Notes: generated by a model from the sequence alone, not told the origin. 61,524 bases of DNA from Candidatus Altiarchaeota archaeon (GCA_043820265.1 JBDREA010000097.1:1-61524), one strand, 5' to 3'. Shown: positions 7,381 to 35,189, numbered from the stretch's first letter. Made by a program: numbers and translations.

Positions 7381-7433
7381 ACCACCACCTTAAACGCACT
7401 ATTTATCCTAGTTCTTCCCTGATAATTAATGCT

Positions 7434-13434: not shown

Positions 13435-14442
13435 TTAGTACTGCATCATTCCCCCTAGGAAGTAGTCTAAGATAAAGCCACCTAAAAAGAATAGGCTTAA
13501 GGCGATAATAACAAGTATTGGGAAGAATTTAAATCCGTCTCTTTCTTCACCTTTCATTATCAAGCCCATGACCATTGCACCGAAAAATGACGAGGCGATG
13601 AGGGAACCTATGGAGTACAACCTGATGAATTCCGGGGTTATCTGCATTTTTGTTATTGAGATCGGCATGGCTCCTGATCCTTCTCCTCCTGCGGGCATGT
13701 CAGCAGCGATTGTGTTCATCATGCCCCCCATCAGGTTCACGAGGAAGGATGACATGGCATAAAGCGCCGGGGCTCCAATGCCAATCGCTATGAAGATGAA
13801 GAACACATACATCAGTACGGATGCGGAGATCTCTTTTTGGATCATTTGTTGATCTCTTAGGTCGTCTGCGGTCTGGTCGAGGAGATCAGCCAGTTTTCCG
13901 CCTGAATTGATGCTTTGGATTATGAGGTCCATGGTTCGCTCGAGGTTCGTTGATCTAACGTTTTTTCCGGTTTTTTGCAGTGCTTCGGTCAAGCTTCTAC
14001 CAGCCATTGCCTCTTTTCCTATTCTTTTTATCTCCAAGCTGAAGTAACCGAATTCTGGCCTTGCCGCAAGAAGAAGTGCTTTGTCTGTCGTCAGTCCTGC
14101 TCTGATGTTTGAGCTCATCAGTTGCAGGGCGTCTGGCAGGGCAGTTTCGACTTCTCTGGCCTTGGAGTCGGCAGATAATAGCACAAGCATGTAGATGAGT
14201 CCTTCGAACAATACGAAAAAGACGAGGATTCCGATCAATAGATTGATTGGTCCCCAAATGTTGATGAGGTCATAGGCTTCAATAAGGGATCCCATTATGA
14301 ATCCGAAAAATAATCCTAAAAGAAGCATTGAACCCATGAATGTGTCTGGGGGGGTTTGAATCCTAGAGAACCTCAGTAACTGGCGGTACTTTATTCTTGT
14401 ACCGCGGGGGAGAACCTTCACGATTGGATTGAATACATTCAT
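13435..14442 (-). CDS. type II secretion system F-domain membrane protein (TadC/PilC-like)
   Basis: 335 aa. Cytoplasmic helical T2SS-F domain (ALPDALQLMSSNIRAGLTTDKALLLA) flanked by TM segments. Adjacent to a second T2SS-F gene and the ATPase. Confidence 0.85.
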   Translation of the reverse strand: MNVFNPIVKVLPRGTRIKYRQLLRFSRIQTPPDTFMGSMLLLGLFFGFIMGSLIEAYDLINIWGPINLLIGILVFFVLFEGLIYMLVLLSADSKAREVETALPDALQLMSSNIRAGLTTDKALLLAARPEFGYFSLEIKRIGKEAMAGRSLTEALQKTGKNVRSTNLERTMDLIIQSINSGGKLADLLDQTADDLRDQQMIQKEISASVLMYVFFIFIAIGIGAPALYAMSSFLVNLMGGMMNTIAADMPAGGEGSGAMPISITKMQITPEFIRLYSIGSLIASSFFGAMVMGLIMKGEERDGFKFFPILVIIALSLFFLGGFILDYFLGGMMQY

Positions 14443-14449
14443 CTTTTTT

Positions 14450-15355
14450 TTAGTTACCTATTAGATTTGGTCTTTTGGATTTTATTATTCCCATGAATAT
14501 GAATTGCATGATGGCTGTTCCTCCAAAGAGCATGTAGTATGTCTGCTCTCTTCCAATGGCTTCCATTCCTGGGAAAGTTGAGAGGATGATGAGCATTGTT
14601 ATCCCAAGTGACGGCAGGATAACTGCAACCATCATATACATCATCGCTAGGGGATTGAGTATGCTCTTGTATCTCCTTATCTCGATTAGCTGTTCTTTGG
14701 AGAGGCTTGATATGACGTTTGCGATGTTGTCTCCGACGTCTGATCCGCTTTTTAGGCTGTTTACGAGCTGCCAGATTGCGCGTCTAAAATAAAGCGAGGG
14801 ATTCCTGTTGGCGAGTTCCTCGAGAGCGTTGACTACTGGTTCGCCGGCATTGACCTTTTCTATTACTGTTTTGAATTCCCCTGTTATTGGTCCGTAGTCT
14901 CCTGTCGAAAGAGATGCTAGGGAATTGAAGACTGGTACGCCTGATCTAATCTGTACTAACACGGTTCTTAATGCGAATAGCAGGTTTCTTTCAAGATATT
15001 TTACTCTTTTATTGACAAGGGATTTTGGATACATCAAAAGGTAGGCGAACATCCCGAATCCCACTATTCCTCCGAAGATGGGTCCTATGACGGGGTGTTC
15101 TCCCCCACCAACTAAGATGACGTAATATATGGGTATCGTGACCAGTATGAACATGAATATCCCCATGAAAAAGGCTATTGCAATGTAATCCCTGGAATTT
15201 ATCTTGTATTCGTCTGTGAGGCCTGATTGTTTTAGAAGGGAGTCTACGTTGGGAAAGAGCCTGAGAAAAAATGACCCTATTCCCCTGAATATATGGGATG
15301 CCGAGCGAATGCCCGGTGAGGCTAGGAATTTAAGCTTCTGTTTTCTTTCTATCAT
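14450..15355 (-). CDS. type II secretion system F-domain membrane protein (TadB/PilC-like)
   Basis: 301 aa with the T2SS-F pattern (NLLFALRTVLVQIRSGVPVFNSLASL...). Its start overlaps the ATPase gene end by 26 nt. Confidence 0.85.
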   Translation of the reverse strand: MIERKQKLKFLASPGIRSASHIFRGIGSFFLRLFPNVDSLLKQSGLTDEYKINSRDYIAIAFFMGIFMFILVTIPIYYVILVGGGEHPVIGPIFGGIVGFGMFAYLLMYPKSLVNKRVKYLERNLLFALRTVLVQIRSGVPVFNSLASLSTGDYGPITGEFKTVIEKVNAGEPVVNALEELANRNPSLYFRRAIWQLVNSLKSGSDVGDNIANVISSLSKEQLIEIRRYKSILNPLAMMYMMVAVILPSLGITMLIILSTFPGMEAIGREQTYYMLFGGTAIMQFIFMGIIKSKRPNLIGN

Positions 15356-17186
15356 CTTCTATTAGCTCTAACATATATTTTGGGTCTTTGTTTTCGTTTA
15401 CTGTGTCAAGGACGGTTTGTCGGTCGAGGTAGTATCTGCTGAGTATTTTTCCGACTTCGTCTATGCACCTGATGTTTCTGTCGACCATGTAGTTTAGGAT
15501 TTTTTTCTTCATCTCTATCTCTTCTCTGATTTCCTGCTGGTTGAGGCCGGTATGTCTTTCGAGTTCCGCAAATAGGTGTGTTGGTTCGTTCACCTTATCT
15601 ATGGTGTCGGTTCTGGCATTCCATGCGTACATCACGTTGGCCTTATATTTTATCCTGCCTTCTTTTTCCATATGTTCCTCATCCATTATAAATTCGCCGA
15701 CTTCGTAGGTCCTCCTTATCCCCCGTCTTCGGTCTCGGAACATTACCACGTTTAAGTGGACGGAGTCGAGCATGCTGTGCGGTATCTCGATTGGCGGATT
15801 GGTGAATCTTGTAATGGTCTGTGCGCATGTGTCTGCGTGAAGGGTTCCATATACACTGTGTCCTGTATGCATGGCTTCGAACAATACTTCGGCTTCTCTT
15901 TTTTTTCGGATCTCTCCCATAATGATCCTGTCGGGACGCATTCTTAGGCAGTTTATGAGGAGGTCGAGCATGGAGACCTCTCCTTTTCCTTCAGGATTTG
16001 GTTCTCTTGTGGTAAGCGGGCACCAGTATAGGAAGTCTGGAAGCTGCAGCTCTCGGGTGTCCTCAATTGATATGATTCTGTTGTTGGGGGGCATGAAGGG
16101 CATGCAGATATTTAGGAAACTTGTTTTTCCACTTCCTGTGCCTCCCGATAAGATCATGTTCATCTCGTATTGGATAACCAACCAGATCAAAGCGAGGGTC
16201 TCATCTGATGCTGTGTGGTTCTTGATGAAGTCTGTGCATGTCCATGGATCGCGCGCGAATTTCCTTATCGTCACAGTGTTGCCTTTGCTGGAGATGGGTG
16301 ATAGGATTGCATTGGCCCGGTCCTTGCTCATCAAATGGGCGTCAAGTAGCGGATTTAATGTTGAGATTTCTCGCCCGATCCTTCTAGCAATTGTTGATGC
16401 ATAATTGGCTATCTGGCTTTCGCTTACGAGATTCACGTTTGTTAAAAGCCAGCCGAATTTTTTTTGGTACACTCTCACCGGTTCCTTTGCCGAGTTTATG
16501 ACTATCTCTTCGAGGTTTGGGTCGTCTAAGAAGAACTCTATCTCTCCAAGGCCCAGTAGTTCGTGCACGAGGTTTAAGATGAAGTGGTCTTTTACATCGT
16601 CTTTGAGGTGAGGCAGTTCGCTTTTTATCAGTTCTTCAGCGCTTTTTTTGAATTCGTCCTTTAAAGCTAGTAGAAGTTTTGGATCGAGTATGTCACTTGT
16701 AGTCATCTCTACCGACGTGATCAGTCTTTCCTTGATGTCGTCTAGGAGGCCTGCGGTTGCGATGCCGACTTCCGGCAATACCAGCTTATATTTTGGGGTG
16801 TATCCTTCCTGCACTATTCTTACTCCAGTAGTTACTCCTTCGCATTGGATGTCGTATTCGTCGAGTATCTTCTCTTTTTTCTTCTTTGGTTTGTCAAAGG
16901 TGAGTTCCTCTTCTATTTTAACCTTCACTCCACCAGGACTTGGTATGCTTTCCTTTTTTTCTGATTCGGTTTTCTCTTTCTCCTCAGTGGATTTGGGCTG
17001 CTCTGATTCTTCTTTTTTGTCTTTTTGCTTTTGATCTTGTTGCTCAGGGGATCTTTCTTGTTGCTGTCCTTTATCTGATCGTTTCTCATCTGGTTTTTGT
17101 TCTCCCTGGTTTAAGCCTTCCTGGTTTTGGGTCTGCCCACCTTCGCCTTCATTGGGATTATTATCTGTTTTCTGGTCTCCTTCCAT
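15330..17186 (-). CDS. type II/IV secretion ATPase (GspE/VirB11/FlaI-PilB family) with low-complexity N-terminal extension
   Basis: Walker A LSGGTGSGKTSFLN, Asp box IISIEDTRELQL, Walker B/His box RPDRIIMGEIR...GHSVYGTLHA. The first 110 aa or so are K/E/Q-rich low complexity. Confidence 0.9.
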   Translation of the reverse strand: MEGDQKTDNNPNEGEGGQTQNQEGLNQGEQKPDEKRSDKGQQQERSPEQQDQKQKDKKEESEQPKSTEEKEKTESEKKESIPSPGGVKVKIEEELTFDKPKKKKEKILDEYDIQCEGVTTGVRIVQEGYTPKYKLVLPEVGIATAGLLDDIKERLITSVEMTTSDILDPKLLLALKDEFKKSAEELIKSELPHLKDDVKDHFILNLVHELLGLGEIEFFLDDPNLEEIVINSAKEPVRVYQKKFGWLLTNVNLVSESQIANYASTIARRIGREISTLNPLLDAHLMSKDRANAILSPISSKGNTVTIRKFARDPWTCTDFIKNHTASDETLALIWLVIQYEMNMILSGGTGSGKTSFLNICMPFMPPNNRIISIEDTRELQLPDFLYWCPLTTREPNPEGKGEVSMLDLLINCLRMRPDRIIMGEIRKKREAEVLFEAMHTGHSVYGTLHADTCAQTITRFTNPPIEIPHSMLDSVHLNVVMFRDRRRGIRRTYEVGEFIMDEEHMEKEGRIKYKANVMYAWNARTDTIDKVNEPTHLFAELERHTGLNQQEIREEIEMKKKILNYMVDRNIRCIDEVGKILSRYYLDRQTVLDTVNENKDPKYMLELIEDDRKKTEA

Positions 17187-17222
17187 ATTGTCTACCTATT
17201 TGCCTAATAGCACATATAATAG

Positions 17223-18359
17223 CTATTCTTTTCCTTCCTTGGAGATAATCTTAATAACTGGCTCCCCGATCGTTGGGTAGTGTAGCTCTAAGAGGTTGTG
17301 TTCTTCGAGGATCATGGCCCATTCCTCGATTTGGGTTTTGCTGACCCTCAACGCCCTCGCCAGCCTGTCATCTACCTTCAAGGTCTTGTATTTTTGGACG
17401 AGCTCATAAAGCCTGTCTATGCTTGTTTCGACCTTTTCTCCCGCCTCAAAGGATTTGACCTTGATTTTGGGTTCTTCTTCGGGTTTTTTTATCACGGTAA
17501 CGATCCTTTTTCTTTGGATCTCTTCCATGCGCTCCCGTTTTCGGCTGCTCATACCCTTGACTGTGCCGGTTACTGCGGCCATCATCCCCTGCTGTGGCTG
17601 ATTTAGTCTGTGCTGCTGGGCTGCAAGAGCGTTTGCAGCCATATCTGGGGCTGGGTTGCTGATTACAGCGTCAAGGCGGCCTTTCTGGATTTCTTTTGCT
17701 CGCTCGGCTTTTTTCATCTCTTCTTGGCTTGGCATGTTTCCCCCAAAACCTGCTACGTGGGGCATCTTGTCACTTATCCCTGCACCGTCTGGGTGGGGTG
17801 AGGGTCCTTTTCTGATTTCACTTAGCCTATCCCCTCTTAAAGGTTTTGGACTTGTGTGACTTGATCCAAATATGCTGGTTATTCTTCCCAGGCCGAACAT
17901 CCTGGAGTGTCGTACGTTCTTTTCCTGGCTTGCGGCTCCTAGCGGCTGGGGTTGGATTTTTGATATTGTTTCTTTTGGTTTAATGGATTTTATCTTTACT
18001 CCGATTTCGCTGAGCTTTAGGATTGAAGATGCCAGGGCTTCTTGATTATCATCTAAGGAGGTCTTCATATCCTGTTCGTCGAATCGATAGATGTCCAGTC
18101 TTCCTGCCGACCCGGCCATGTGTTCTCTGATACTTGCGAGCGCGTCGTCTCCGAGCAGGACTTTTTTGCCCCCCAACGCCTCAAAGGATGCTCCTCTTAT
18201 GTCTCCGTTTTCGATTAGGATGTCTGCTTGATAGAGGACTTTTTCTACTATCCCCATCAGCCTCATGCATCCTGTGAAGTTAACATCGAGTTCCTTACAG
18301 ACCTGGTAGAAGTCTTTTGTGTTTCTGGGTGTTATGTGGTGGCCTTTGAGGAGATTCAT
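17223..18359 (-). CDS. pilus-locus accessory protein with C-terminal winged-helix-like domain
   Basis: Hypothetical. The C-terminus SIDRLYELVQKYKTLKVDDRLARALRVSKTQIEEWAMILEEHNLLELHYP looks like a wHTH. Directly upstream of the ATPase on the same strand. Start set at ATG 18359. Confidence 0.55.
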   Translation of the reverse strand: MNLLKGHHITPRNTKDFYQVCKELDVNFTGCMRLMGIVEKVLYQADILIENGDIRGASFEALGGKKVLLGDDALASIREHMAGSAGRLDIYRFDEQDMKTSLDDNQEALASSILKLSEIGVKIKSIKPKETISKIQPQPLGAASQEKNVRHSRMFGLGRITSIFGSSHTSPKPLRGDRLSEIRKGPSPHPDGAGISDKMPHVAGFGGNMPSQEEMKKAERAKEIQKGRLDAVISNPAPDMAANALAAQQHRLNQPQQGMMAAVTGTVKGMSSRKRERMEEIQRKRIVTVIKKPEEEPKIKVKSFEAGEKVETSIDRLYELVQKYKTLKVDDRLARALRVSKTQIEEWAMILEEHNLLELHYPTIGEPVIKIISKEGKE

Positions 18360-18527
18360 GGTCTTGGGGTTAGAATAAAAGATATTATAACGAATTGCAT
18401 AAATAAATGAACATTTGGAGTTATGCAATTCGATATATTCGATTGCATAAGTAATCCTTATAAAGTTCAAAAACTTATGTAATCGACTATACTTTCAGAC
18501 ATTAAAAAAAAAGATTTTTTTTTAGAT

Positions 18528-20933
18528 CTAGGCTTTGATTTCGATCGACTCAATGTATACGTAAGTGTCTGAGCTTCCTTTCGCACCTGAGGGATTTTGC
18601 GTTCGAATCCAGCTCCAGGCTTCAAATCTGATTTGTTGGATTGTGTCGTTATCTGGGACTGAACCAATCCAGAATCCTGAGTTACCTTCTTCTATTGGAT
18701 CAGGTTCGTTTGCGGGGCAAGTGCCTGATTCAAGGGGGCAGTTTGGGGTTCCGCTAGGATTACCTATGAATCTATTTGAGGTCTCTGTTCCGTTGTGTGT
18801 CAATTTGATATTTGCCTCCCAGTTTCCACAAATATTTTGTACTTCACATGTGATATTATTTTCGGCCTTCCAAGTAAAGTTTACTTCAGTGAAACAGTTG
18901 TTTGGGAAAAGATTTATCTCGATATATGTTGTTTGTTCTTCTGTTTCTTGGACTCCAATCCCACCTTGTTCCTCGTTGACTTTAGACCAAAGAGTAATAT
19001 TTCCTGCTTCGTCTACACTCCACTCGGTTTTTGCCCCGTTTTCGTCGTCAAATTCTCTTCCTTGGAGTTTAGATGGGCCATAATAATTATCCAAGCTGCC
19101 GTTGTATAGTGTAGTCCATCCCATCGGACAACCCCCACATCCATCCAAAGTTACAGAGGTTCCTGTAGCTGGAGTTTCTTCTGTTCCATTATTGTCTGTT
19201 GCGCGAGCCTGTATTATGTATGTTCCATCGACTCCCGGATCCCATGATATGTTCCATTCATCTGTCCCATTAGCAAGCTCCCAAGTATTGCCTCCATCCC
19301 ATGACACATCGACAATTGTGACGTTTCCGTCTGAATCTGATGAATTTCCTTTGATGAATAAATTACTGGGACAGGTGTCGTATAGGGCTCCGTCAGCGGG
19401 TTCATTGATCTGTGAGGCAGGAGGTTTATTGAACGTGGAAAAGCAGGCTGATGTGAGATTGTCGAGTTCGGCGTGCGGGCAGTCGTAGCGGAAGGAGTAT
19501 GTATAAACTCCCTGGCAGACTCCATATACTTCACAGGCGGAGGTGTTCTGCCAGTAAAGATAGTCCACCCACGTGTCCGAGGTTTTCACAGTTATTCCCC
19601 GCGCCAATAGGTCATATGGGTTAATCAATGATTCAAGCCCGATGTAGGGATTATTGAAATATCTGATGCTGAGATTAACGTATTTTTCGCTCAAATTTAG
19701 TTTTCCGTCCATCCGGTCAAAGAAGCTCGGGCCGTTTTCGTACCGGCTCGGACAGTATGTTCCGTACCCGCTCACATTGCTTACCCTGTAGCATGTGGTG
19801 TTTATCTGGCGGGGATTTATTCCAAGCAATACTTGGTGAGTGCTTCCGTCGTTAAAGAGGTAAATGCAACTGTCTTCTTCGACGGTCAGGGAGTTGTCCG
19901 CTCCGCAGGAGGGGTCGGCTCCCGTGGGGGTGGGGGGTGACAAATCACCTGTTCCGTTTATCCAGGGGATTGTTGCGTTGCATGTCCCCCTGATGGCGTC
20001 TGGATGGTCTTCGTAATCGATGAGGGCTGAAAAAGTCTTTGAGGAATTAGCTAGAAAGCAATCCTGAATGCTTTGGTTGCAGGAGCCGGCATACGCTTGA
20101 TCCATCACCAATACCTTGTCTTTCATTATCTCTCGGTCTGTGTTTTGGCAGTATGTTTCTAGTGCGGCTTGGCTTCCGATCTGCGTTGAGTAAAGAAGGG
20201 CTTCCCCCCCAGATACGCCTATCCCGTTTTGCTGAGCGCATCCTACGACCCCTGATAGTTCGACAAAGTCTGTGCAATTATTCAAGGCTTTGGTTAAAAG
20301 TCCGCCTGATTCCAATGGATAAAGGGGGTCTTCTAAACCGATGATTGACGTCAAAGAAGTGGTTTCGACACTGCTTCCCCGATAAAAGCAGAGCCCGCTC
20401 TCGTCTTCCACGTTCAGTGAATTGTTGATGATTATCGCAAAGGTGAACGCGTCATATGGGACAATCGTGATGTTGTTCAATGTGATGTTTATCTTGAAGT
20501 TCATGTCGCTTTCAAGAGCCATCATCTTATCTATCCAAACCGGAAGGGTATGGTTTTTCATGTCGCTTATGTTGTTTCCCCCTACTGTTGCGCACATCAT
20601 CAGCTCGGCTATGGCCGCTCTTGAACCGACTTCGCTATACTGGAATGAGGAGCAGTTATTATAGGTGTAGCTCTCAAGAGGTTGGTTGTTGGATACGATA
20701 TAGTCGATGGAGTAGATAGTGGCTCTTCGGCCGAACACCGACATGGCCCTGTCCAGGTCTCTTTTTATGTCTTCGACAAAATACTGGAGCTCGTCGCAGC
20801 GTATTTTTCCAGCCGCATCATCCACTGATTCCTGCTGCTGGGTTGAGGTGAAAGTGACTAAAAGGAGGAATGGTATGGCCAGAAGTAGGATGGCTATTGT
20901 GAAAAAGTATCCTTTGTTGTTTTTTACGGTCAT
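18528..20933 (-). CDS. giant prepilin-like surface protein (801 aa) with Ig-like C-terminal region
   Basis: Class III signal-peptide-like N-terminus MTVKNNKG/YFFTIAILLLAIPFLLLV. A large Cys/Asn-rich ectodomain includes an Ig-like stretch NVTIVDVSWDGGNTWELANGTDEWNISWDPGVDGTYIIQARATDNNG. Start set at ATG 20933, 6 nt from the upstream gene's stop. Confidence 0.75.
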   Translation of the reverse strand: MTVKNNKGYFFTIAILLLAIPFLLLVTFTSTQQQESVDDAAGKIRCDELQYFVEDIKRDLDRAMSVFGRRATIYSIDYIVSNNQPLESYTYNNCSSFQYSEVGSRAAIAELMMCATVGGNNISDMKNHTLPVWIDKMMALESDMNFKINITLNNITIVPYDAFTFAIIINNSLNVEDESGLCFYRGSSVETTSLTSIIGLEDPLYPLESGGLLTKALNNCTDFVELSGVVGCAQQNGIGVSGGEALLYSTQIGSQAALETYCQNTDREIMKDKVLVMDQAYAGSCNQSIQDCFLANSSKTFSALIDYEDHPDAIRGTCNATIPWINGTGDLSPPTPTGADPSCGADNSLTVEEDSCIYLFNDGSTHQVLLGINPRQINTTCYRVSNVSGYGTYCPSRYENGPSFFDRMDGKLNLSEKYVNLSIRYFNNPYIGLESLINPYDLLARGITVKTSDTWVDYLYWQNTSACEVYGVCQGVYTYSFRYDCPHAELDNLTSACFSTFNKPPASQINEPADGALYDTCPSNLFIKGNSSDSDGNVTIVDVSWDGGNTWELANGTDEWNISWDPGVDGTYIIQARATDNNGTEETPATGTSVTLDGCGGCPMGWTTLYNGSLDNYYGPSKLQGREFDDENGAKTEWSVDEAGNITLWSKVNEEQGGIGVQETEEQTTYIEINLFPNNCFTEVNFTWKAENNITCEVQNICGNWEANIKLTHNGTETSNRFIGNPSGTPNCPLESGTCPANEPDPIEEGNSGFWIGSVPDNDTIQQIRFEAWSWIRTQNPSGAKGSSDTYVYIESIEIKA

Positions 20934-20938
20934 TTTTT

Positions 20939-23900
20939 TTATCGCCAGATTGTCAGGTCCGCTTGTATCGGACCCCAAAGAGATCTGACCTCACCTGTCT
21001 TTGAGAAGTCGACTATCAATTGTCCTGCTGCGAACTCTAACCCGAGCATTCCGTCATCGTCTATGTCCAGTTGGCTTAGAAGCCTATATACTGCGTCATC
21101 GACGGCGTCGTTCGTATCATAGCACGCCGAAGTGGAACAGATAGAAGTGTAGTTGCATTCGTTTGTCCCGTTGTAGTTCGAGGGAAAGTCGATTCTTGTG
21201 TCGCTTCCGTCCTCGAATTCTATGTTCCATGTGCAGCCCTCCTTGTCCTGGAACACCCCGCCGTAGTCTACGCTGCCTCTTAGTCTCACAGTGTATATCG
21301 CCCTGCTGTATTCAGAACAGAACGTTGGCGTGCTTGGGTCGTTTCCTGTTCCGATTGTGAATGAATTGTTTTCTCCGTTTTTTATAAGGGAAGCTGGGAC
21401 CTGTATGAAGTATGGGTCGCCTAGAATCGTGTAGTCTCCCCCGAAGTGGCTGTCGCGTAAGGTGTAGATGTCATAGCTTCCTGCGCTGTTGTTTAGGCTT
21501 AGGTAGTCTGTCCAGTACTCTCCGGAATATGAAGTTATCTTTACGTCGACAACTGTCAAGTTATCCCTTACACTCAGCTTACCCTCGCATCCACCGAATG
21601 TCGGCGTATCGAGGTTTATCGAAATCTCTCCGTAGTCTGGGGGATTGATGCTTGGATCATAGGTGAACTCGATGTATGAGTCGTTGTAGAGGATTCCCCT
21701 GAAAATATCCCCTTCGGTCACATTAATAGCCTGCCCTCTGTAGCTGGCATTCACAAGGTCTTGGGCTATCTCTCTGTAGATAGTCGCAAGTTCTGATGCA
21801 TTGGTGCTCATGTAGAAGTGGCTGCAGTTGTCAATGCAGGCTGTGTCGTTCATGTTGTCTGCGCAGGTTGAAGCGTCTCCATAAAGAACAGTATACAACG
21901 CAATGCCATACGTGTCGTATGCTATTGTCGCTTCGTCTAAGACTTCCTGCTTTGCCGTAGCGTCACTGCAGCTGACGCCTGGAATACATCTGTTAGCGCA
22001 TCCGTCGCTCATAATAATTATGGCCTTCAATCGGTCGATAGTGTTTATTATTTCTAGATCAAATGCAGCACTTGAGGTGTCGTCATTGTGGACTATCACA
22101 CCTAAAACATTATCTCCATCGGCCACATCATTATTGTTAATAACTATTCCGTCTCTATCCCAGTATGATCCAGAATGCTCGGTAGAATCGTTATCTATGA
22201 GCACCCCGTTAAGATAAACTTCGGCTTTGTCGTCTGATAGCACAAACAATTTCGTGATGTTTAGGGTCGACTTGTTCACAGTAAACGTCTTCCTGAAGTG
22301 GTAGTCTCCGCTGGCGGCGATTGTGGGTATGAGCTCTAAACTCACGTTTGTAAAGTAGGCTATTATGCCCTCACTGTCAGATTGGGATCCTGTAGTAGCA
22401 TCAAACTTTACTCCGAAATCCAAGTAATACCACCCTGCACCTCCAGAAGATATGATGGTAGACACATTTTGCCTGAATCTTCCGCTGTTATTGATTCCAT
22501 TACCATCCATGTCGAAGTCCCCGTAGACTTCATCTTCATCCCATTCTATGTTGTCGGTAATGCTATGGTCATAGAGTACTTCAAGAGTTGTATCAGTCGG
22601 AGCATCACCGTTTCCATTGCCTGTATCAAGGTCGTATCCAAGGTAGTTGTTGCTTAGGTCCGGGTCTCCGAGCTGGAAGAATCTTGACTTAATCCATACC
22701 GACTCCTCCGTATCGTCACTCGATGATGTGTCAAATGCTTCATAGTCAAATGACACAAAGACTTCTGCTCCAGCAGCAATTGCATCCACAACTGCTTGTG
22801 TGATGTTTATCTGAACCCCCCAGGCACCGCTGTCGGCTACCTCATCTGTGCGGCCCTCTATTCTAACCTCGAGCCGGCTGCTTCCATCTTGAGTTGTGCC
22901 GCCAGAAAGACCTGATGGATCATAGTGGCTGGTCATATCAGAATTACCTGGTATTCCTCCAGGTCCTAATGTTCCGTATGCGTCATCTCCCCTAAACCAG
23001 TCCCATCCGTCATCGTAGTTTGCAAAGTCTATGCTCATGATTATCTCAGTGTTTGCTGTGCTGTTTAAGCCGCTTGTGAAATCCACAGGAGACGGTATAT
23101 CTTGGGCCATATCCCAGAGGTCGGCGTCAAGTGCACCAGCCCCCTCCCCGACCTTTAATTGTATGTTATCAAAATATGCCGCCAGACCTTCTCTATTACT
23201 TCTCCCATTGCTCCATGGCCCCCTGAAGTCGACCTTCGCCCCAAGAGCCAAGTAGTACGCACCCGGACCTGAGATATAAGGTGAAACATTCTGCCAGAAA
23301 TTCCCTGATACTAGGCTGTTCCACCCGTTACTGTCATCGTCGACTGATCCCCAGATCTCATTTGATGCGTCACTGTATCTGTGGCCTGAATCCAGGTCTG
23401 AACCCAGCCAGTACGTATCGGTTGTGTCACTGAAGCGTGCTTTTATCCAAGCACCTTCCTCAAGGTCATCGTCGGCATCGTCTGCCCCCCACCAAAAGGA
23501 GAGGTTTGTTGTGGCTCCTGCATTAATCTGGACCCACATAGCGTCTGTTATGTTGAACTCTATCCCCCAGGCACCACTGTCTGAGATGTCGTCTAGGTTG
23601 TTCCCGCTGGGTCCCACAACAACTGCAATGTACTTTCGACTTCCTGGTCCATCATATCGCTGAATTTGGGTTGAAGTGTCGGTGTCGTAGTCGCTTTTTC
23701 CGGACGGATCGCCGTGCTCGCAGTGGTCGCTTGTCGCATCTCCCACGAAGTCTCTCCACCAGTCCCATCCGTCATTGCTATCGCCACCGTTTGAAAAGGT
23801 GTTGTCTAGGCTGTTCACGCCGTCCGTGAAGTCCACGTTCTTCGAGCAACCACCCGCAGTGTTCCAGATGTCCAAATACGTTGTATGCACGTTCGTACTC

Positions 23901-25531
23901 ATTAATTCGCTGGTGTTGCCGAAGCCGAGAATCGCCTTTCCCTGATCCCAGGTTGAGTCATCGAATGACAGGTTGTTCCAGCCGGCGGGCGGGGCACTGG
24001 CAAGATAATCAGTTGAATATTTCCAGCAGCTCTCTCTTTCCACGAGCTTTTCGAATCCCAGGTTAGCCAGAGTCTCACGGGCAGACCTTATCGAACACGA
24101 CGTGCATGTGTAACCGCAGTCGTCGTCGTAGAAGTCGATGTTCGCGATAAGCGCTGCAGTATTGTCAGTTAAGGACTGTGTCCTACAGACCGAGGTCCCG
24201 TAGGCGACCAACCCAATCCTGTTTCCCGAGACGTTTGTCACGATGTTTACGAAGTCTTTGTCGTTGCATTTGGCGACAGAAATCTTTGTGGTGTCCAGAT
24301 CAAAGAGGTTCGGATCAGTGCAAACGCGGTCCACTGCCCCAGTATAGTCTCCGTCAAATTTTTCACCCATGCTTCCCGAATTGTCTGTTATGAGCATGAT
24401 GTCTGCTATTCCGTCTCCCCCTTCCATGAAGTATGAAAGCCCTTCTGTTCCCAGACGCAGGGGGACGGTCTGCTCGGAGTACTCGTCGTCTGACGCACCA
24501 TAATCTATGAATGAGGAGAAGTTGACGTCATCCATCAAAATTATTTGTTCTGTACCGTTCGTGGAAAGATTCACCTGACTGTCCCCCACCCTCATAAAAG
24601 TCGTGTAGTTGTTTTTGATGTGAAGGTACATGTCCATCTGGTACAAGTCTCCGGGAACATAGAAGCTGTCATAGAGGTTTATCAACCCGACAATCCCCGG
24701 GAAATTATAGCGCATGATTCCGGCGGGATCCTGGGCAGCAAATTCTTTGGTTGTGTAGCTTACCCTGATGAATCCTCCGCCGATGTAGGAGACACTGAGG
24801 TCTGTGGTGTCAAAGATTATCTCAAATGTATTGTTTTCACCGGGAGTAATGTCATCATGGCAGACTGTATCGAGGATGTATGTGCCAACATTGTATGTGT
24901 TACTGGCTTTGGTTTTCAATCCACCGCATTGGATGCCGTTGATGAATACCTTGAAGTCTTCGCCCACGCTCAACTCCAAATAGATCTCCGAAATGTTTGC
25001 ATCGAGAGGTATGCCTTCAACTATCCTTGTGATGTTTCCCTCTCCCACAAATCCCCCGAAATAAGCGTATGAGGCAGTTTCCTTGGATTTTACTCCAGTA
25101 AGAAAAGCTCTCGCCACGCTCCCCTTCACGGGCAAACCCTTCCCGTAACCGACGAGTACCCTGCTTGAATGGGTTAGTTCTGTCGCATCACCCATGGACC
25201 TGCGCCCTGAGCCGTTGGAGACGACTTCATCGTCGATGGTGAGCCTGTATCCGGCGTTTGCGGGAACCAATTCAGAAAGATAGTAGTCTGCTATCCCCAT
25301 ACTACGGTTCATGTCGTTTTCCGCCCACGCCTCGCCGATCTCGTCAAGTATCCCTTGTTTGTTCATAGTTTCCAGCACGTCTTCGGATAGATAGTGGAGA
25401 TTCTTAAAGCTTGTAATCGAGGTCCTACTCGTCGCAGAATACTGGAAACCTAAAAGAGAAACGAAGATGACGGAAACAAAAAGGAGGGCAATGACTGAAT
25501 CAAGCAAAACGGTATACCCTCTATCCTTCAT
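20939..25531 (-). CDS. giant prepilin-like adhesin (1530 aa) with split VWA domain, split jelly-roll module and tandem internal repeats
   Basis: N-terminus MKDRG/YTVLLDSVIALLFVSVIFVSLL. VWA MIDAS DNSGSM at about 24370-24390, with the rest of the VWA (IIIMSDG...) at about 22000. Two repeats of about 235-255 aa at about 23145-23842 and 22325-23093. Confidence 0.8.
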   Translation of the reverse strand: MKDRGYTVLLDSVIALLFVSVIFVSLLGFQYSATSRTSITSFKNLHYLSEDVLETMNKQGILDEIGEAWAENDMNRSMGIADYYLSELVPANAGYRLTIDDEVVSNGSGRRSMGDATELTHSSRVLVGYGKGLPVKGSVARAFLTGVKSKETASYAYFGGFVGEGNITRIVEGIPLDANISEIYLELSVGEDFKVFINGIQCGGLKTKASNTYNVGTYILDTVCHDDITPGENNTFEIIFDTTDLSVSYIGGGFIRVSYTTKEFAAQDPAGIMRYNFPGIVGLINLYDSFYVPGDLYQMDMYLHIKNNYTTFMRVGDSQVNLSTNGTEQIILMDDVNFSSFIDYGASDDEYSEQTVPLRLGTEGLSYFMEGGDGIADIMLITDNSGSMGEKFDGDYTGAVDRVCTDPNLFDLDTTKISVAKCNDKDFVNIVTNVSGNRIGLVAYGTSVCRTQSLTDNTAALIANIDFYDDDCGYTCTSCSIRSARETLANLGFEKLVERESCWKYSTDYLASAPPAGWNNLSFDDSTWDQGKAILGFGNTSELMSTNVHTTYLDIWNTAGGCSKNVDFTDGVNSLDNTFSNGGDSNDGWDWWRDFVGDATSDHCEHGDPSGKSDYDTDTSTQIQRYDGPGSRKYIAVVVGPSGNNLDDISDSGAWGIEFNITDAMWVQINAGATTNLSFWWGADDADDDLEEGAWIKARFSDTTDTYWLGSDLDSGHRYSDASNEIWGSVDDDSNGWNSLVSGNFWQNVSPYISGPGAYYLALGAKVDFRGPWSNGRSNREGLAAYFDNIQLKVGEGAGALDADLWDMAQDIPSPVDFTSGLNSTANTEIIMSIDFANYDDGWDWFRGDDAYGTLGPGGIPGNSDMTSHYDPSGLSGGTTQDGSSRLEVRIEGRTDEVADSGAWGVQINITQAVVDAIAAGAEVFVSFDYEAFDTSSSDDTEESVWIKSRFFQLGDPDLSNNYLGYDLDTGNGNGDAPTDTTLEVLYDHSITDNIEWDEDEVYGDFDMDGNGINNSGRFRQNVSTIISSGGAGWYYLDFGVKFDATTGSQSDSEGIIAYFTNVSLELIPTIAASGDYHFRKTFTVNKSTLNITKLFVLSDDKAEVYLNGVLIDNDSTEHSGSYWDRDGIVINNNDVADGDNVLGVIVHNDDTSSAAFDLEIINTIDRLKAIIIMSDGCANRCIPGVSCSDATAKQEVLDEATIAYDTYGIALYTVLYGDASTCADNMNDTACIDNCSHFYMSTNASELATIYREIAQDLVNASYRGQAINVTEGDIFRGILYNDSYIEFTYDPSINPPDYGEISINLDTPTFGGCEGKLSVRDNLTVVDVKITSYSGEYWTDYLSLNNSAGSYDIYTLRDSHFGGDYTILGDPYFIQVPASLIKNGENNSFTIGTGNDPSTPTFCSEYSRAIYTVRLRGSVDYGGVFQDKEGCTWNIEFEDGSDTRIDFPSNYNGTNECNYTSICSTSACYDTNDAVDDAVYRLLSQLDIDDDGMLGLEFAAGQLIVDFSKTGEVRSLWGPIQADLTIWR

Positions 25532-25692
25532 TTTACCTCTCAGAGACGGTCGGACTGTAAACTAATTGCAGGCGGCGTATTAAAATGTTGAATTCTGGGT
25601 GTATATAGTTGTCGATTTCAAGCACTCAAAGTATTTAAATCTGTCGATTCCTGAACTGCTCCATGAAAAATTGTTTAAGTAGGGGTGAAGCT

Positions 25693-28332
25693 TCAACAGT
25701 GTCTATAAGTAATATTTAATAGGAAGTCTAAAAATTCCAATCCAGTTGCCTCTGATAGGTGGACTCCGAATACATTATCGCCCGTTGAAGTATATGCTGT
25801 AATGTTCTTCCAGCCAGTCGGATCTTGAACTGCCGCCTTATCGCAGTCTACTCCGTTGTTGTACCATCCGCAACCCGATTTGTTGCAGTCTGCTCCGGAG
25901 TGATTAGCTAGATTATCGTTTGCATAAAGCCAGAATCCATCATCCGAGTTGAATTTAAAAGTCACGTTTTCAGGAGTGCCAGGTATTGTGACAACCTTCC
26001 TATAGTAGAAATCGCAGTTATTGCAGTAGCTTCCTCTTGGAAGTGGCAGGTTTGTATCATTCCAAGCTGTATCGTCATATCCGAGCTGCGCCCATCCAGG
26101 TGGCCCACTGCAATTAGTAGAAGAATAATTCATTGTCTTCCACCCAGACGTAAGGTCCCCTAAACTGAAGGTTCCCTGGCAGTCGGCGTCCGCGCAGTCA
26201 ACATCGCCGTCGCAGTCGTTGTCTAAACTGTCAGTACAATCTACTTCTATCCCTCCACAGTCCACATCGTCTGTGTCTACGCATCCGTCGCAGTCGTTAT
26301 CATTTGAATCACCGCATTGGCCTAGCCCCTCGATTCCACTGCAGTCAGAATCTGCTGCATCTATACAAAGGTCGCAGTCATCGTCGACTGTGTTAACGCA
26401 GGAAATCTCTGTTGTAGTCAAGTTAACAGTTAAATTATAGCTGTCTAAGTCATCCACGACTCCATTGTCTTCGCAGTCTCCCCCGTCAGCATCAATTGTA
26501 ATATAATAAGTTATTCCTGAGGTGACACATGAGGAAATCCTAGCCGGCCAAATCGGCGGACCTGCGTCATGGGCTAAATGTATGCAGTTCTGGTCTTCGA
26601 TACTTACATCTGCTTGATCGTTTGATCCAGTTGGTGGTTCGCTCGACCAAAGAGCAACCCACAATTTTCCGCTGGCATCTGGAATATACTTGTAGATATG
26701 CCATTCGCTCGTGTAGTAGTCGAAGTTGTTGCAGGTGTAGGAGGCATTGTCTGGAATCAAGAAGGCATCTGCGGCCGGGTCGTTGCAACTATGCCAGTCC
26801 TGTCCGGCTCCATTGCATACATCGTCATCGGCGGGATCGCAACCAGTTGTCCAGCCACAACCGAATGGCAGAGTATCGGTGCAGTCTGTGTCGTTCCAAT
26901 CCAATAGTCCGTCGTTGTCGTTGTCGCCGCAGTCCCAGCAAATCTCTGCGCCGCCCCAGAACTTGCATTCACCCGCTCCATCGCATTGATATTGTCCCTT
27001 ACAGGCTTCATCCTGTAGTCCGATTCCCACAGGGACTTCTCCGCACCCAAGGGTACATGTGGGGTTATAGCACATATTGTTGGGACAAGACGAAGCATCT
27101 CCTCCACAATCTTCGCCTGGATCACATATGCCGTCGCCGCATTGCACTGACTTAACTTTTCTTTCGTCGGAGTACCAGAGAGTCAGAGTAGTCTTAACAA
27201 CTTCGTCTTCTAGAACACCAGTACGATAGGTCGTGAGTTTTTCAGTTTCGTTTTCAGGTCTCATCCCGAATTCGATTACGTATTCGTTGAAGGTCGCAAG
27301 GATTGGAAACAAAGATATCGAGTTTGGATCTCCGCTGTCTGCAATGTATCTGACCGAGCCATCCCCGTATTTCCAGCGGCAAAGAAGGCATTTGTCTGCG
27401 TCTCCCGCTACACTGATGGCAATCTTTTTCGTGTCATCGGAGTCTATCTGTATGGGATAACCTTCCATGGAGCCTATGGTATCGCCTACGCTGAGGTTTG
27501 TGGGAAGCAGGTAGTCGTTTGTCAGAACCTGACCGGTGTAATTATCTGGCACCCCTACAATGGATGAGTTGAAATAGCTTATCTCAGGAGTGAATTTTTC
27601 AGCCACAAGGATACCTCCCCTCGCAACATATTCCCGCAGAATATTTATCTCTGTGAAGGTCAGAGAAAGGTTATCCGTATCCTCCAATATTACAGCATCA
27701 TAGTTAGAGAGGTTGTTTAGAAGATACTGGGTGACATCGTCTTTTGTACCCTGATAAAATGATTCAGCAGTCGAATAATTGGTTCCTGGCGCTGCCAGGT
27801 CGTTTCCCCAATAATAGTCCCAAGTTATATTGAAGGCTTGAAGGGAGGGAAGAAAGCCTTGTTCGTCTATTTGATAAGTGAAATACGCAAGCCTTATCCT
27901 TGAAAGATTACTGATGATGACTTCGTTTCCCAGAACCAAAGGCGGAGTGCGCGAAACCTTGAACAAAAACTCGTATCTCCCGATCCCAAGCATATGCTTA
28001 TTGTTCTCATAGCCCATGCTCGGAATGTCCATCAACTCGGCGAACATGTAAAGTCTATCAGTCAACATCCTCCCCCGGTTCTTGTCTGATAACCCGATCG
28101 CTTGAACGTTCGTAAGGTTCCACTCAGTCGGGGTCCCAGGGGTTCGGACGAGTTGTTCTGCGACATCGATCGTCACTTTTTCGAGATCGTAGCGGATTTC
28201 TGCGTCAGCCAGGTTTCGGGTCGTAGAATCCCAAAGATAGATGGTCATCGTCAAGGCTGCTATGAAGATGATGTACGCCAAAAGGAATTCTCCCCCGAAC
28301 ATCTGCCCTTTCTTTTTGTTTTTTTCCATCAC
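25693..28332 (-). CDS. giant prepilin-like surface protein (879 aa) with Cys/Asp-rich repeats, PPC-like and jelly-roll-like domains
   Basis: N-terminus MMEKNKKKGQ/MFGGEFLLAYIIFIAALTMTI. Four repeats of the type C..S.DNDCDG.VD..D.DC. A pre-peptidase-C-terminal-like segment (...GITYYITIDADGG...YNLTVNL). C-terminal W..LGYDDTAW...FYYRKVVTIPG...FNSDDGFWLYANDN. Confidence 0.8.
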   Translation of the reverse strand: MMEKNKKKGQMFGGEFLLAYIIFIAALTMTIYLWDSTTRNLADAEIRYDLEKVTIDVAEQLVRTPGTPTEWNLTNVQAIGLSDKNRGRMLTDRLYMFAELMDIPSMGYENNKHMLGIGRYEFLFKVSRTPPLVLGNEVIISNLSRIRLAYFTYQIDEQGFLPSLQAFNITWDYYWGNDLAAPGTNYSTAESFYQGTKDDVTQYLLNNLSNYDAVILEDTDNLSLTFTEINILREYVARGGILVAEKFTPEISYFNSSIVGVPDNYTGQVLTNDYLLPTNLSVGDTIGSMEGYPIQIDSDDTKKIAISVAGDADKCLLCRWKYGDGSVRYIADSGDPNSISLFPILATFNEYVIEFGMRPENETEKLTTYRTGVLEDEVVKTTLTLWYSDERKVKSVQCGDGICDPGEDCGGDASSCPNNMCYNPTCTLGCGEVPVGIGLQDEACKGQYQCDGAGECKFWGGAEICWDCGDNDNDGLLDWNDTDCTDTLPFGCGWTTGCDPADDDVCNGAGQDWHSCNDPAADAFLIPDNASYTCNNFDYYTSEWHIYKYIPDASGKLWVALWSSEPPTGSNDQADVSIEDQNCIHLAHDAGPPIWPARISSCVTSGITYYITIDADGGDCEDNGVVDDLDSYNLTVNLTTTEISCVNTVDDDCDLCIDAADSDCSGIEGLGQCGDSNDNDCDGCVDTDDVDCGGIEVDCTDSLDNDCDGDVDCADADCQGTFSLGDLTSGWKTMNYSSTNCSGPPGWAQLGYDDTAWNDTNLPLPRGSYCNNCDFYYRKVVTIPGTPENVTFKFNSDDGFWLYANDNLANHSGADCNKSGCGWYNNGVDCDKAAVQDPTGWKNITAYTSTGDNVFGVHLSEATGLEFLDFLLNITYRHC

Positions 28333-28358
28333 ATATCCTATGATAAAATTATCACATC

Positions 28359-29129
28359 CTATGCTAATACTATCATTTCAACTAATTGGTTATTTGACTC
28401 TATGCTTTCAAAACTTGAATTCGAATCGTCCACGCTAACTTCTATCCTATAAGAACCCGCGGGCCAGGGGGGTGAAACATAGCTTACAGTCAAGGTCTCT
28501 CCCGCGCCAAGTCCTGTGACCGTCACCCCGGTGCAGGGGTGGTTGTCGGCGCATATACCGTCTGTTCGGTCGAGGTTGGTGAACATCACGATAAAATCCT
28601 TCGTTTCTTCGACGTGGGCGTCGTTTTCTATCTCCACTGACACGGTGTTTGCGACTCCCCCTTGCCCTGGAGTCGATTTTAATGTGTTGTTTAGGGGTCT
28701 GAGCTCCGGCCTGTGGCATGTGATGATTATCCTCCCCTCCTCGTTTAGCGCCCTGTTTGAATAGTTTCTTCCGTAGTCCAGGCAGTGGACGGTGACGTTG
28801 CTGTTTATGATCTGCCTCGCCCACGCCCTCTCCTCCCCCCAGAGTATCTCCACGATATTGCTTGATACGACCAAAGAGTATTCTTCTTGGGAGTAAAGCA
28901 GTCCGGGGAGAGTGAAGTATCTGAAGTAACCCGAACCCTGCTCGCTTATCGTATTGATGTTGTCTGCGAAGCTGTCGGTCACACTTTTTGCGTCAGAAAA
29001 GATTTTTATCTGGGTGCTGTCCTGGATCTTTCTGATGGAAAGAAGCGAGACCATAATGAAGATTATCAGGATGAATCCGAACACCATTATGAGCTCGACT
29101 CCCGACTGCCCTTTTCGTCTGTGATTCAC
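28359..29129 (-). CDS. prepilin-like protein (256 aa) with CARDB-like C-terminal domain
   Basis: Class III signal-like MNHRRKGQ/SGVELIMVFGFILIIFIMVSLL. C-terminal beta-sandwich-like VSVEIENDAHVEETKDFIVMF...GETLTVSYVSPPWPAGSYRIEVSVD. First gene of the minus-strand locus. Confidence 0.75.
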   Translation of the reverse strand: MNHRRKGQSGVELIMVFGFILIIFIMVSLLSIRKIQDSTQIKIFSDAKSVTDSFADNINTISEQGSGYFRYFTLPGLLYSQEEYSLVVSSNIVEILWGEERAWARQIINSNVTVHCLDYGRNYSNRALNEEGRIIITCHRPELRPLNNTLKSTPGQGGVANTVSVEIENDAHVEETKDFIVMFTNLDRTDGICADNHPCTGVTVTGLGAGETLTVSYVSPPWPAGSYRIEVSVDDSNSSFESIESNNQLVEMIVLA

Positions 29130-34085: not shown

Positions 34086-34196
34086 GTATATAGTTGAGGT
34101 CATAATTACATGGGCATTCCAGGGTTAATTATGACCTCAAATATATTGGAGGACATTAAATATAGCCCAAATAATTATGTCCTCCACTATAAAAGA
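34086..34196 (+). repeat. double-hairpin promoter-proximal element, copy B
   Basis: Hairpin 1 arms are 34087-34104 and 34129-34146 (ATATAGTTGAGGTCATAA / TTATGACCTCAAATATAT). Hairpin 2 arms are 34148-34156 and 34177-34185 (GGAGGACAT / ATGTCCTCC). It is followed by ACTATAAAAG, then ATG at 34218. Confidence 0.65.
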
Positions 34197-34217
34197 GCTG
34201 ATTCGAGAATATATTTC

Positions 34218-35186: not shown

Positions 35187-35189
35187 GCG

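Follow-up and report, generated by a model that had tools for sequence, protein, structure and literature searches.

A Type IV Filament Locus in a Candidatus Altiarchaeota Contig

The stretch of DNA analyzed here (JBDREA010000097.1, referred to in its full length as the window) is a 61.5-kb contig of a metagenome-assembled genome of Candidatus Altiarchaeota. Positions 13435–29129 are filled by eight tightly packed minus-strand genes, identified by open reading frame (ORF) calls and the NCBI accessions MFH1722031 to MFH1722038, which make up a type IV filament (TFF) locus. In transcription order, these genes encode four pilin-like proteins, henceforth referred to as g1, g2, g3, and g4, an accessory protein with a DUF2226 domain, an ATPase, and two proteins with a T2SSF (type II secretion system F) domain. 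These genes and two further features are listed here, with lengths in amino acids (aa) or nucleotides (nt) and TM standing for transmembrane.

28359..29129, minus strand: g1, pilin-like, 256 aa, N-terminus RRKGQSGVELIMVF; NCBI MFH1722038.1, "CARDB domain-containing protein"
25693..28332, minus strand: g2, pilin-like, 879 aa, N-terminus KKKGQMFGGEFLL; the NCBI start, ATG 28329, gives 878 aa
25532..25692, no strand: g2–g3 intergenic gap, 161 nt
20939..25531, minus strand: g3, modular pilin-like, 1530 aa, N-terminus KDRGYTVLLDS
18528..20933, minus strand: g4, pilin-like, 801 aa from ATG and 816 aa from an upstream TTG, N-terminus NNKGYFFTIAILL
17223..18359, minus strand: accessory protein (DUF2226), 378 aa from M38; NCBI MFH1722034.1; longest ORF 17223–18470
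15330..17186, minus strand: secretion/assembly ATPase of the FlaI/GspE2/CpaF type, 618 aa
14450..15355, minus strand: platform protein 1, single T2SSF domain (61 bits), TM segments, TadB/EpdJ-like
13435..14442, minus strand: platform protein 2, single T2SSF domain (70 bits), TM segments, TadC/EpdK-like; MFH1722031.1
53986..54579, plus strand: candidate stand-alone major pilin, 197 aa; NCBI MFH1722066.1, "hypothetical protein"

An earlier note on this DNA had described the run as nine consecutive genes; the tight minus-strand arrangement stands, but the count is eight. ORF calling reproduced its coordinates, strand, and quoted N-termini. The note had also recorded a single gap of about 160 nt. 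The gap between g2 and g3 is there, but it is probably not the only one, because a start of the accessory gene at M38 (18359) leaves a second gap of ~168 nt between g4 and that gene. M38 is the most likely start; NCBI annotates 378 aa, and the 37 additional residues of the TTG-initiated ORF are found in no relative. The g2–g3 gap holds no credible ORF (none longer than 38 aa). Read by eye, it has an oligo-T run past the g2 stop and AT-rich TATA-like stretches, with a Shine–Dalgarno-like site (GAGAGGT) ahead of the g3 ATG, and it may be an internal transcription boundary.

The assignment of the motor gene to the GspE/FlaI-type ATPases holds: the protein matches the Pfam model T2SSE far above the cut-off (115.5 vs. 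24.9 bits) and additionally matches PilB3_C. Its best solved relative is GspE2 of A. fulgidus (2oap; e value 9e-66), followed by FlaI and CpaF (e value about 1e-50), and Walker A (GGTGSGKT), Walker B (RIIMGE), and His box motifs are seen. Most relatives have ~500–530 aa and the closest ones 576–580 aa versus 618 aa here; residues 1–100 form an E/K/Q-rich low-complexity extension. The platform consists of two adjacent genes, each encoding one T2SSF domain (70.4 and 61.3 bits vs. a cut-off of 25.2) and TM segments, in agreement with the two T2SS-F membrane proteins seen earlier. The accessory protein comprises a DUF2226 N-domain (Pfam, 27 vs. 22 bits), a low-complexity linker, and a C-terminal module of ~60 aa that is conserved into DPANN archaea (loci L004–L006, see below). 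It has no TM segment and is cytoplasmic, and no profile confirms in the window protein the winged helix-turn-helix domain that it had been thought to contain.

None of the eight proteins reached an equivalog cut-off in NCBIfam, and the ATPase matched FlaI, TadA, and BasE below threshold; therefore, it is not an archaellum motor. An archaellum was rejected on further grounds: with 267.7 bits, the match to the FlaI model stays below the cut-off of 550, the platform is split, and neither an archaellin nor an Fla accessory family was found. A bacterial Tad pilus was also rejected, given a TadA score of 171 versus 373 bits, an archaeal organism, and a search in which no Flp, TadV, or secretin was found. 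The earlier note's reading of a type IV pilus/Tad-like locus is borne out, as an Epd/Tad-like type IV filament system, by the T2SSE match, the two T2SSF matches, and the conserved gene cassette described later.

Prepilin-Like N-Termini of the Four Upstream Proteins

Each of g1–g4 opens with a Lys/Arg-rich peptide of 5–9 residues (5–12 aa for the predicted signal peptides) that ends in Gly and is followed by ~20 hydrophobic residues. The junction is MNHRRKG/QSGVE in g1 (Q at +1, E at +5), KKKG/QMFGGE in g2 (Q+1, E+6), KDRG/YTVLLD in g3 (D+6, no Q+1), and KNNKG/YFFT in g4 (no Q+1 and no acidic residue). FlaFind-style prediction of class III signals, which had been proposed as a check, picks g1–g4 and two probable false positives when applied to every possible ORF start in the window. 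It missed the 197-aa ORF at 53986–54579 owing to its hydrophobicity threshold, and a family-derived motif recovers this ORF. Across the six frames of the window this motif matches solely g1, g2, g3, and ORF 53986–54579; given this and the gene order conserved in 79 other loci, the arrangement is not a product of chance. The bacterial motif IPR012902 is absent from g1–g4.

The junctions in orthologs from three Altiarchaeota contigs agree with those of the window (RGQ/SGxEL, GQ/MFSGEF, RG/YAxxLDA, and KG/xFFT for g1–g4, respectively). Among 85 related loci, the junction is kept in 63 of 64 g1 sequences ([GAS]Q...E), 65 of 69 g2 sequences ([GAS]Q....[ED]), 68 of 78 g3 sequences ([GAS]x5D[AST]), and 76 of 80 g4 sequences; Lys or Arg stands at −2 or −3 nearly always, and all families keep the [KR]-[G/A/S] type. 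Epd pilins of M. maripaludis have a signal peptide of 5–13 aa ending in Gly with conserved Q+1 and E+5 (PMC3875500). This Epd-pilin/EppA-substrate rule is fitted exactly by g1 (G/QSGVE) and the 197-aa ORF (G/QGSLE) and nearly by g2. In AlphaFold2 models, a g3 ortholog (helix of 55 residues) and g4 of the window have long N-terminal helices. The motif scans, the junction conservation, and the predicted helices together favor the view that the four upstream proteins bear prepilin-like N-termini; however, the Pfam profile Class_IIIsignal is not significant on any of them.

A Conserved Four-Gene Cassette in Altiarchaeota and DPANN Archaea

GTDB species genomes were scanned using an alignment of g3, and at least 449 stretches were found to encode a g3 relative. 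The 79 best loci were analyzed by ORF calling and BLAST. They belong to Altiarchaeota, Aenigmat-, Woese-, Pace-, and Nanoarchaeota, and almost everywhere have the order (d1)-g1-g2-g3-g4-accessory-ATPase-F-F, where F denotes a T2SSF gene. The large genes are thus tightly linked to the ATPase and T2SSF genes in relatives as well, so that the outcome named by the earlier note as refuting, large genes absent or independent of this machinery in relatives, did not occur; among the 35 related loci with enough flanking sequence, 29 have the ATPase and F genes. In three Altiarchaeota loci (L001–L003), the order is g1-g2-g3-g4-DUF2226-ATPase-(KaiC-like)-F-F. The Nanoarchaeota-type loci L004–L006 have a divergent operon with d1, an extra small pilin, and g1–g4, facing accessory-ATPase-F-F and KaiC-like genes; BLAST pairs each of their proteins with its window counterpart (for g3, e values of 1e-50 to 1e-79).

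The families differ in length among lineages. Median lengths of g1, g2, g3, and g4 are 253, 189, 943, and 659 aa in Altiarchaeota loci versus 132, 171, 905, and 336 aa in other lineages; g3 alone is always large. The earlier note had seen a machine specialized for giant adhesins. The same four-gene cassette occurs, however, in at least 79 GTDB species with g1, g2, and g4 far smaller, and the machine is therefore not specialized in this way. Three short contigs have a similarly large g3 or g4 with 62–65% identity to the window, and one locus (L076) has a g2 of 1049 aa. Judged by these sequence comparisons, the window represents an extreme, genus-level form of a cassette that is widespread, and it does not stand alone in this.

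Some Altiarchaeota (L014, L024, and L075) have a tandemly duplicated g3-g4 pair (g3-g4-g3-g4), which suggests that both proteins work together, and some Nanoarchaeota (L035 and L049) have two or three g3 copies. These duplications suggest paralogous tip variants.

Several genes beside the cassette were noted in passing. KaiC/RecA-like ATPase genes (PF06745) lie in or beside it in L001 (11549–12268), L002 (11559–12281), L004 (13716–18114), L005 (13905–16026), and L006 (9056–11799), and the window locus has none. Directly upstream of g1 and divergent from it, the three Altiarchaeota loci have a PQQ/FG-GAP beta-propeller gene encoding 913–1546 aa (L001 1–1234, L002 1–2363, and L003 1–3327). The window has no such gene there; MazG takes its position. 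Contig L029 (QMNJ01000180.1) and the contig of protein P0308 encode g3/g4 homologs but bear the labels "Candidatus Coatesbacteria bacterium" and "Deltaproteobacteria bacterium"; in all probability, both are archaeal and were mis-binned.

Domain Architecture of g1 to g4

All four proteins join a pilin module to a non-pilus functional module, the combination that defines modular pilins (Raynaud et al. 2021), and their ectodomains proved to be very large and adhesin-like, as had been described. In g1, the pilin module is followed by a C-terminal CARDB domain at 141–249 (33.2 bits, above the Pfam cut-off), which confirms the earlier assignment, and there is a weak match to DUF7289. The protein is 34–39% identical to g1 of L001, L002, and L003.

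Residues 1–386 of g2 represent the "long form" of the g2 family: DPANN relatives of 360–400 aa align to 5–386 and short relatives (165–200 aa) to 5–128. Cys/Asp-rich acidic repeats at ~390–720 are part of a C-terminal extension of ~490 aa, and residues 728–879 form a C-terminal domain common to many proteins of unrelated length. No Pfam family matches g2, either whole or in sub-fragments, and none of the best 150 50%-identity cluster representatives listed matches it over the full length. The earlier designation "Cys/Asp-rich Ca-binding-type" can be traced to residue counts (42 Cys and 101 Asp), to three DxDxDGxxD-like motifs, and to a match, itself weak, with the NCBIfam "acidic double-disulfide repeat" (e value 0.0024).

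The conserved core of g3 consists of residues 1–372 and 1278–1530. The VWA and Ig-like domains claimed earlier, which fall in g3 and g4, respectively, remain below the Pfam thresholds in the window proteins (VWA_2 in g3, 24.2 bits vs. a cut-off of 27; Big_7 in g4, 22.1 vs. 24.1), but both are backed by precomputed matches of orthologs and by AlphaFold2 and Foldseek. The metal ion-dependent adhesion site (MIDAS) residues of g3 are intact (D383-x-S-x-S387, T in GYTCTS, and D1176), and the VWA domain is split by an insertion of ~680 aa (~490–1170) between the helix of the MIDAS threonine and the strand of the MIDAS aspartate. The AlphaFold2 model of a 918-aa g3 ortholog (P0125; predicted local distance difference test score [pLDDT] 87) has a helix at 4–58 and a VWA domain at 380–650. 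Its top Foldseek match in the PDB is the modular minor pilin PilB of S. sanguinis (7b7p/7ba2; e value 1e-12), followed by the VWA-bearing pilus-tip adhesins Mfa5, PitA, and RrgA. Members of the g3 family reach 2667 aa, with inserted Laminin_G_3, CUB, DUF2341, or FG-GAP domains.

The g4 protein has a conserved core of ~500 aa, a Big_7-type Ig-like domain at ~506–596, and a C-terminal beta-sandwich at 638–800. In its AlphaFold2 model (pLDDT 86), helices at 7–31 and 34–82 are followed by a long three-stranded sheet at 146–196. What had been called a jelly-roll has support only as the predicted beta-sandwich, and the "PPC-like" modules found no Pfam support: whole proteins show no PPC, and nine sub-fragments of g2, g3, and g4 gave nothing significant and no PPC. 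BLAST among g1–g4 of the window for shared modules returned only one weak match, between g2 774–857 and g3 1076–1145 (e value 0.014). Two tandem repeats that the g3 insertion seems to contain when read by eye are tentative.

A Candidate Major Pilin in the Window

ORF 53986–54579 on the plus strand, which the earlier note had overlooked, lies between pyrI and proC and encodes a 197-aa protein with the signal peptide MSQSVKIRFSRG/QGSLEFIASYGWAIMVVLVAGAALY (Q+1, E+5). Its start can also be written MSQSVKIRFSRGQ/GSLEFIASYGWAIMVVLVAGAALY, and the Epd-type class III junction is SRG/QGSLEFIASYGWAIM. Pfam gave no match for this protein, and its N-terminus is 50–56% identical to "majP" pilins of DPANN archaea (BLAST e values down to 5e-8). 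In DPANN loci, one to four majP copies (~140–180 aa; KGQ/AAMEFLMTYGWAILVV) adjoin the cassette and bear the same signature as the g1–g4 families; Altiarchaeota loci have no major pilin gene adjoining the cassette. Stand-alone major pilin genes and split platforms are typical of archaeal clade 1, or system 1 (PMC4858521; 10.64898/2026.04.22.720090). The 197-aa protein is the likely shaft subunit, and its presence in the window favors a real pilus over a display-only pseudopilus.

A pseudopilus of that kind is what the earlier note's idea of display comes closest to. Much like the arrangement proposed for the sugar-binding proteins of the Sulfolobus bindosome, a short cell-bound stub, or none, would be formed, and large class III proteins would be anchored or extracted and shown on the surface. 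That Altiarchaeota cassettes have no adjoining major pilin gene is in line with this, as are ectodomains that far exceed anything that packs into a filament. However, the window does hold a majP-type gene, and one to four copies flank the DPANN cassettes. The four distinct pilin families in fixed order resemble sets of minor pilins and not interchangeable binding proteins, and bindosome substrates usually adjoin ABC (ATP-binding cassette) transporters outside the TFF cluster. We consider bindosome-like display unlikely.

A Putative Adhesive Tip Complex

On balance, the locus probably encodes an Epd/"system 1"-like (Tad-like) type IV pilus whose four minor pilins form an adhesin-bearing tip complex. 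Subsystems 4A and 4B may also have a split platform, and the locus may belong to subsystem 4A instead. Under the tip-complex reading, a prepilin peptidase encoded elsewhere would cut g1–g4 after the Gly, and the four proteins would form a heteromeric complex held together by their N-terminal helices. This complex would prime polymerization of a small major pilin, for which the 197-aa ORF is the best candidate on the contig, and would end up at the pilus tip, like GspH-I-J-K, FimU-PilVWX with PilY1, and PilB/PilC of S. sanguinis. The C-terminal modules (MIDAS-containing VWA, CARDB, Ig-like, beta-sandwich, and acidic Cys-rich repeats) would thus project outward as adhesins that bind to surfaces, to biofilm matrix, or to other cells, and in this genus they may have grown through domain accretion and through the ~680-aa insertion inside the VWA domain. 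We infer cleavage, complex formation, tip location, and adhesion from these comparisons. Where the earlier note had spoken of cargo, g1–g4 are better read as subunits, that is, as minor, modular pilins.

Several observations weigh against this reading. The tip complex is proposed by analogy. The match between g3 and PilB is dominated by the VWA domain (template modeling score 0.45 on the target). What was modeled for g3 is the 918-aa ortholog, which is 43% identical to g3 of the window over the best-aligned third, and in Foldseek only the Ig-like domain of g4 finds matches, the ~500-aa core having no solved minor pilin relative. The candidate major pilin lies 25 kb from the cassette, and family resemblance is its sole tie to this machine. 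Two membranes occur in at least some Altiarchaeota (PMC4460559), and the locus shows no evident outer-membrane conduit. The remaining points concern processing: Q+1 is lacking in g3 and g4 and the acidic residue in g4, and Pfam Class_IIIsignal/DUF361 gives no significant match on the N-termini of g1–g4 or of the DPANN pilins (e values 0.1–0.2). Among all sizeable ORFs of the window scanned with Pfam, none matches Peptidase_A24 or Arc_PepC, as the earlier note had found no prepilin peptidase gene there, and no A24 peptidase is among 28 polytopic ORFs flanking the 85 related loci. Those 28 ORFs yielded a presenilin-type signal peptide peptidase, a rhomboid, and M50 proteases. One window ORF was considered and set aside, at 59011–59880 (minus strand): its 289-aa product, which has roughly six TM segments and contains Cys in its C-terminal domain, has no Pfam match and no GxGD and is not an obvious peptidase. 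Nanohaloarchaeota offer a parallel, with kaiC-associated Tad-like clusters that also lack a peptidase, which is encoded in another cluster (PMC9563170).

The lack of a peptidase in window ORFs and in the flanks of related loci, the nonsignificant Class_IIIsignal match, and the g4 junction without an acidic residue past it are also what favors a different view, in which the N-termini are ordinary uncleaved signal anchors, g1–g4 are surface proteins of the type II membrane-anchored kind, and the pilus operon is no more than their neighbor. This view must contend with a [KR]-[GAS] junction, with Q+1/E+5 or D+6, that is kept across phyla in four families, with the synteny to ATPase and platform genes in 79 loci, and with small majP pilins that bear the same signature; moreover, prepilin peptidase genes do exist in DPANN genomes, where they lie in other clusters (PMC9563170). 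We regard it as improbable.

The outer membrane brings in a further alternative, namely secretion of the type II (T2SS) kind, in which a pseudopilus of g1–g4 would act as a piston that pushes other proteins, or the large proteins themselves, across that membrane. The ATPase is as near to the GspE type as to pilus ATPases, Ca. Altiarchaeum has two membranes (PMC4460559), and four "minor pseudopilins" would mirror GspH-K. However, neither the locus nor its relatives have a secretin, a GspC/L/M analog, or a candidate exoprotein cargo, and the presence of VWA/MIDAS, CARDB, and Ig modules speaks for adhesion and not for a piston. The cassette also occurs in the sampled DPANN lineages, for which, to our knowledge, a second membrane has not been described. 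The chance that the locus is such a secretion machine seems slight.

Because the organism is an Altiarchaeote, the locus might also be thought to assemble or anchor the hami of Altiarchaeota, filaments that resemble grappling hooks. Assembly of hami in the manner of type IV pili has been suggested (PMC4460559), and Makarova et al. (PMC4858521) named minor pilins as possible hook-like decorations. We rejected this as the principal explanation because the hamus subunit is a Sec protein encoded elsewhere (S-layer-like, with a Sec signal peptide and a different contig context; PMC4460559) that is missing in most Altiarchaeales, which lack hamus homologs (PMC4975002). The cassette is, in addition, common to DPANN lineages, for which the literature found reports no hami. 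A role in hamus assembly is thus highly improbable.

Returning to the pilus with a tip complex, a more specific version can be put forward only tentatively: the g1–g4 cassette, conserved in Altiarchaeota and throughout the DPANN radiation, could be the archaeal counterpart of the bacterial priming/tip complex of four minor pilins and PilY1, with the always-large g3 as the main host or surface recognition device and its variable insertions (Laminin-G, CUB, DUF2341, FG-GAP; here ~680 aa) setting specificity. If this were true, it would imply for double-membraned Altiarchaeota that a type IV pilus crosses the outer membrane independently of a secretin.

DPANN archaea and Altiarchaeota either lack cultures or grow poorly, and little is known of how they attach to hosts, minerals, or each other. 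Surveys of DPANN have found ATPase and platform genes of the Tad/Epd-like kind but few or no pilins; here, a fixed set of four pilin-like families, one of them a VWA/MIDAS modular pilin of ~900 aa, is found beside that machinery in hundreds of genomes, where most of its members bear the annotation "hypothetical" or "VWA domain-containing protein." The cassette provides concrete candidates for adhesive pilus tips with variable modules that can be compared with host range or habitat, and it would widen the concept of the modular pilin from bacteria to archaea, with sizes up to several times larger.

Other Features of the Window

Housekeeping genes flank the locus: downstream there is an AMP-phosphorylase-like gene, and upstream, on the opposite strand, MazG. 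Elsewhere in this archaeal contig, a 1065-aa ORF at 7290–10487 (plus strand) contains bacterial sigma-70 regions 2, 3, and 4 (Pfam). A phmmer search against the PDB matches SigA/RpoD (e value about 3e-18) over residues 548–790; the N-terminal half has LAGLIDADG-like motifs, and the C-terminus has two extra region-4-like repeats. This ORF had raised the suspicion of a bacterial origin or contamination, which was ruled out: the homologs of the ATPase, g3, and g4 as well as the NCBI names are those of Altiarchaeota. ATPase relatives at 65–81% identity are nearly all from Altiarchaeota, and those at ~60% identity are from Nano- and Woesearchaeota.

A row of genes at 42518–49839 (plus strand) encoding MoxR (AAA_3), DUF58, BatA/VWA, and VWA/DUF7408 proteins is a Bat-like "aerotolerance" operon; VWA/MoxR pairs have been tied to archaeal pilus regulation (Makarova et al. 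2016, PMC4858521). At 34110–36659, an Mrr_cat restriction-endonuclease-like gene (minus strand) lies beside an N6/N4 methyltransferase-like gene (plus strand).

Comparison with Known Systems

Several elements found here or in the related loci have been described before, namely archaeal TFF loci that encode large adhesin-like proteins, platforms that are split, the association with KaiC, and class III signals on large functional proteins. Modular pilins have been described for bacteria only (PMC8179133). In our literature search, we found no description of the four-family cassette, of a VWA pilin of ~900 aa, or of their presence in Altiarchaeota.

Among the most similar systems is the Epd pilus of M. 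maripaludis, representing system 1 (corresponding to clade 1 in Makarova et al. 2016), a system that has been reported in DPANN (PMC4858521; PMC3875500; 10.64898/2026.04.22.720090); the system 1 surveys do not mention Altiarchaeota. Shared features are the split platform, several minor pilins in the cluster, a stand-alone major pilin, associated large adhesin-like proteins, and a signal peptide that ends in Gly and is followed by Q+1 and E+5. Unlike the Epd cluster, the locus has a DUF2226 accessory gene and no EppA peptidase; its candidate major pilin has 197 aa with a globular part in contrast to Flp-like pilins of ~70 aa, and its large proteins are themselves pilin-like and carry VWA instead of DUF2341.

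Cluster 2 pilus loci of DPANN (Hamm et al. 2024, PMC11291902) and the kaiC-associated Tad-like clusters of Nanohaloarchaeota (Microbiome 2022, PMC9563170) are similar in their CpaF/TadA-like ATPase, TadC-like platform genes, nearby kaiC genes, lack of a peptidase in the cluster, and occurrence in the same DPANN lineages. The reports on these clusters mention few or no annotated pilins, focus on coiled-coil proteins, and describe neither the four-family cassette with its VWA pilin of ~900 aa nor its presence in Altiarchaeota. The Sulfolobus bindosome (Bas) likewise has large extracellular class III proteins that depend on a TFF ATPase and platform, but these are solute-binding proteins with ABC transporters, whereas here adhesin-type domains are part of a conserved cassette inside the TFF cluster.

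Among bacterial systems, GspH-I-J-K, FimU-PilV-W-X with PilY1, and the Tad pseudopilins TadE/F/G resemble the cassette in that pilin-like genes, four of them here, stand in fixed order next to the machinery, with one much larger than the others, and the tip adhesins PilY1 and TadG have a VWA domain, like g3. No sequence or fold match to these sets was found. The modular pilins of S. sanguinis, PilB (vWA) and PilC (lectin), also fuse a pilin module to an adhesion module, with a MIDAS in the vWA domain. Among solved structures, g3, as modeled in its ortholog, matches PilB best, and a tip location is predicted for both; modeling of PilB puts bulky modular pilins at the tip (PMC8179133). The proteins described here differ from bacterial modular pilins in their archaeal lineage and in a junction that is not the bacterial N-methylation motif. 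The VWA domain of g3 sits midway in a conserved core of ~630 aa and is not grafted at the C-terminus as in PilB. With 801–1530 aa for g2, g3, and g4 and up to 2667 aa in the family, they compare with 860 aa for the most extreme multidomain example in the survey of modular pilins (Raynaud et al. 2021).

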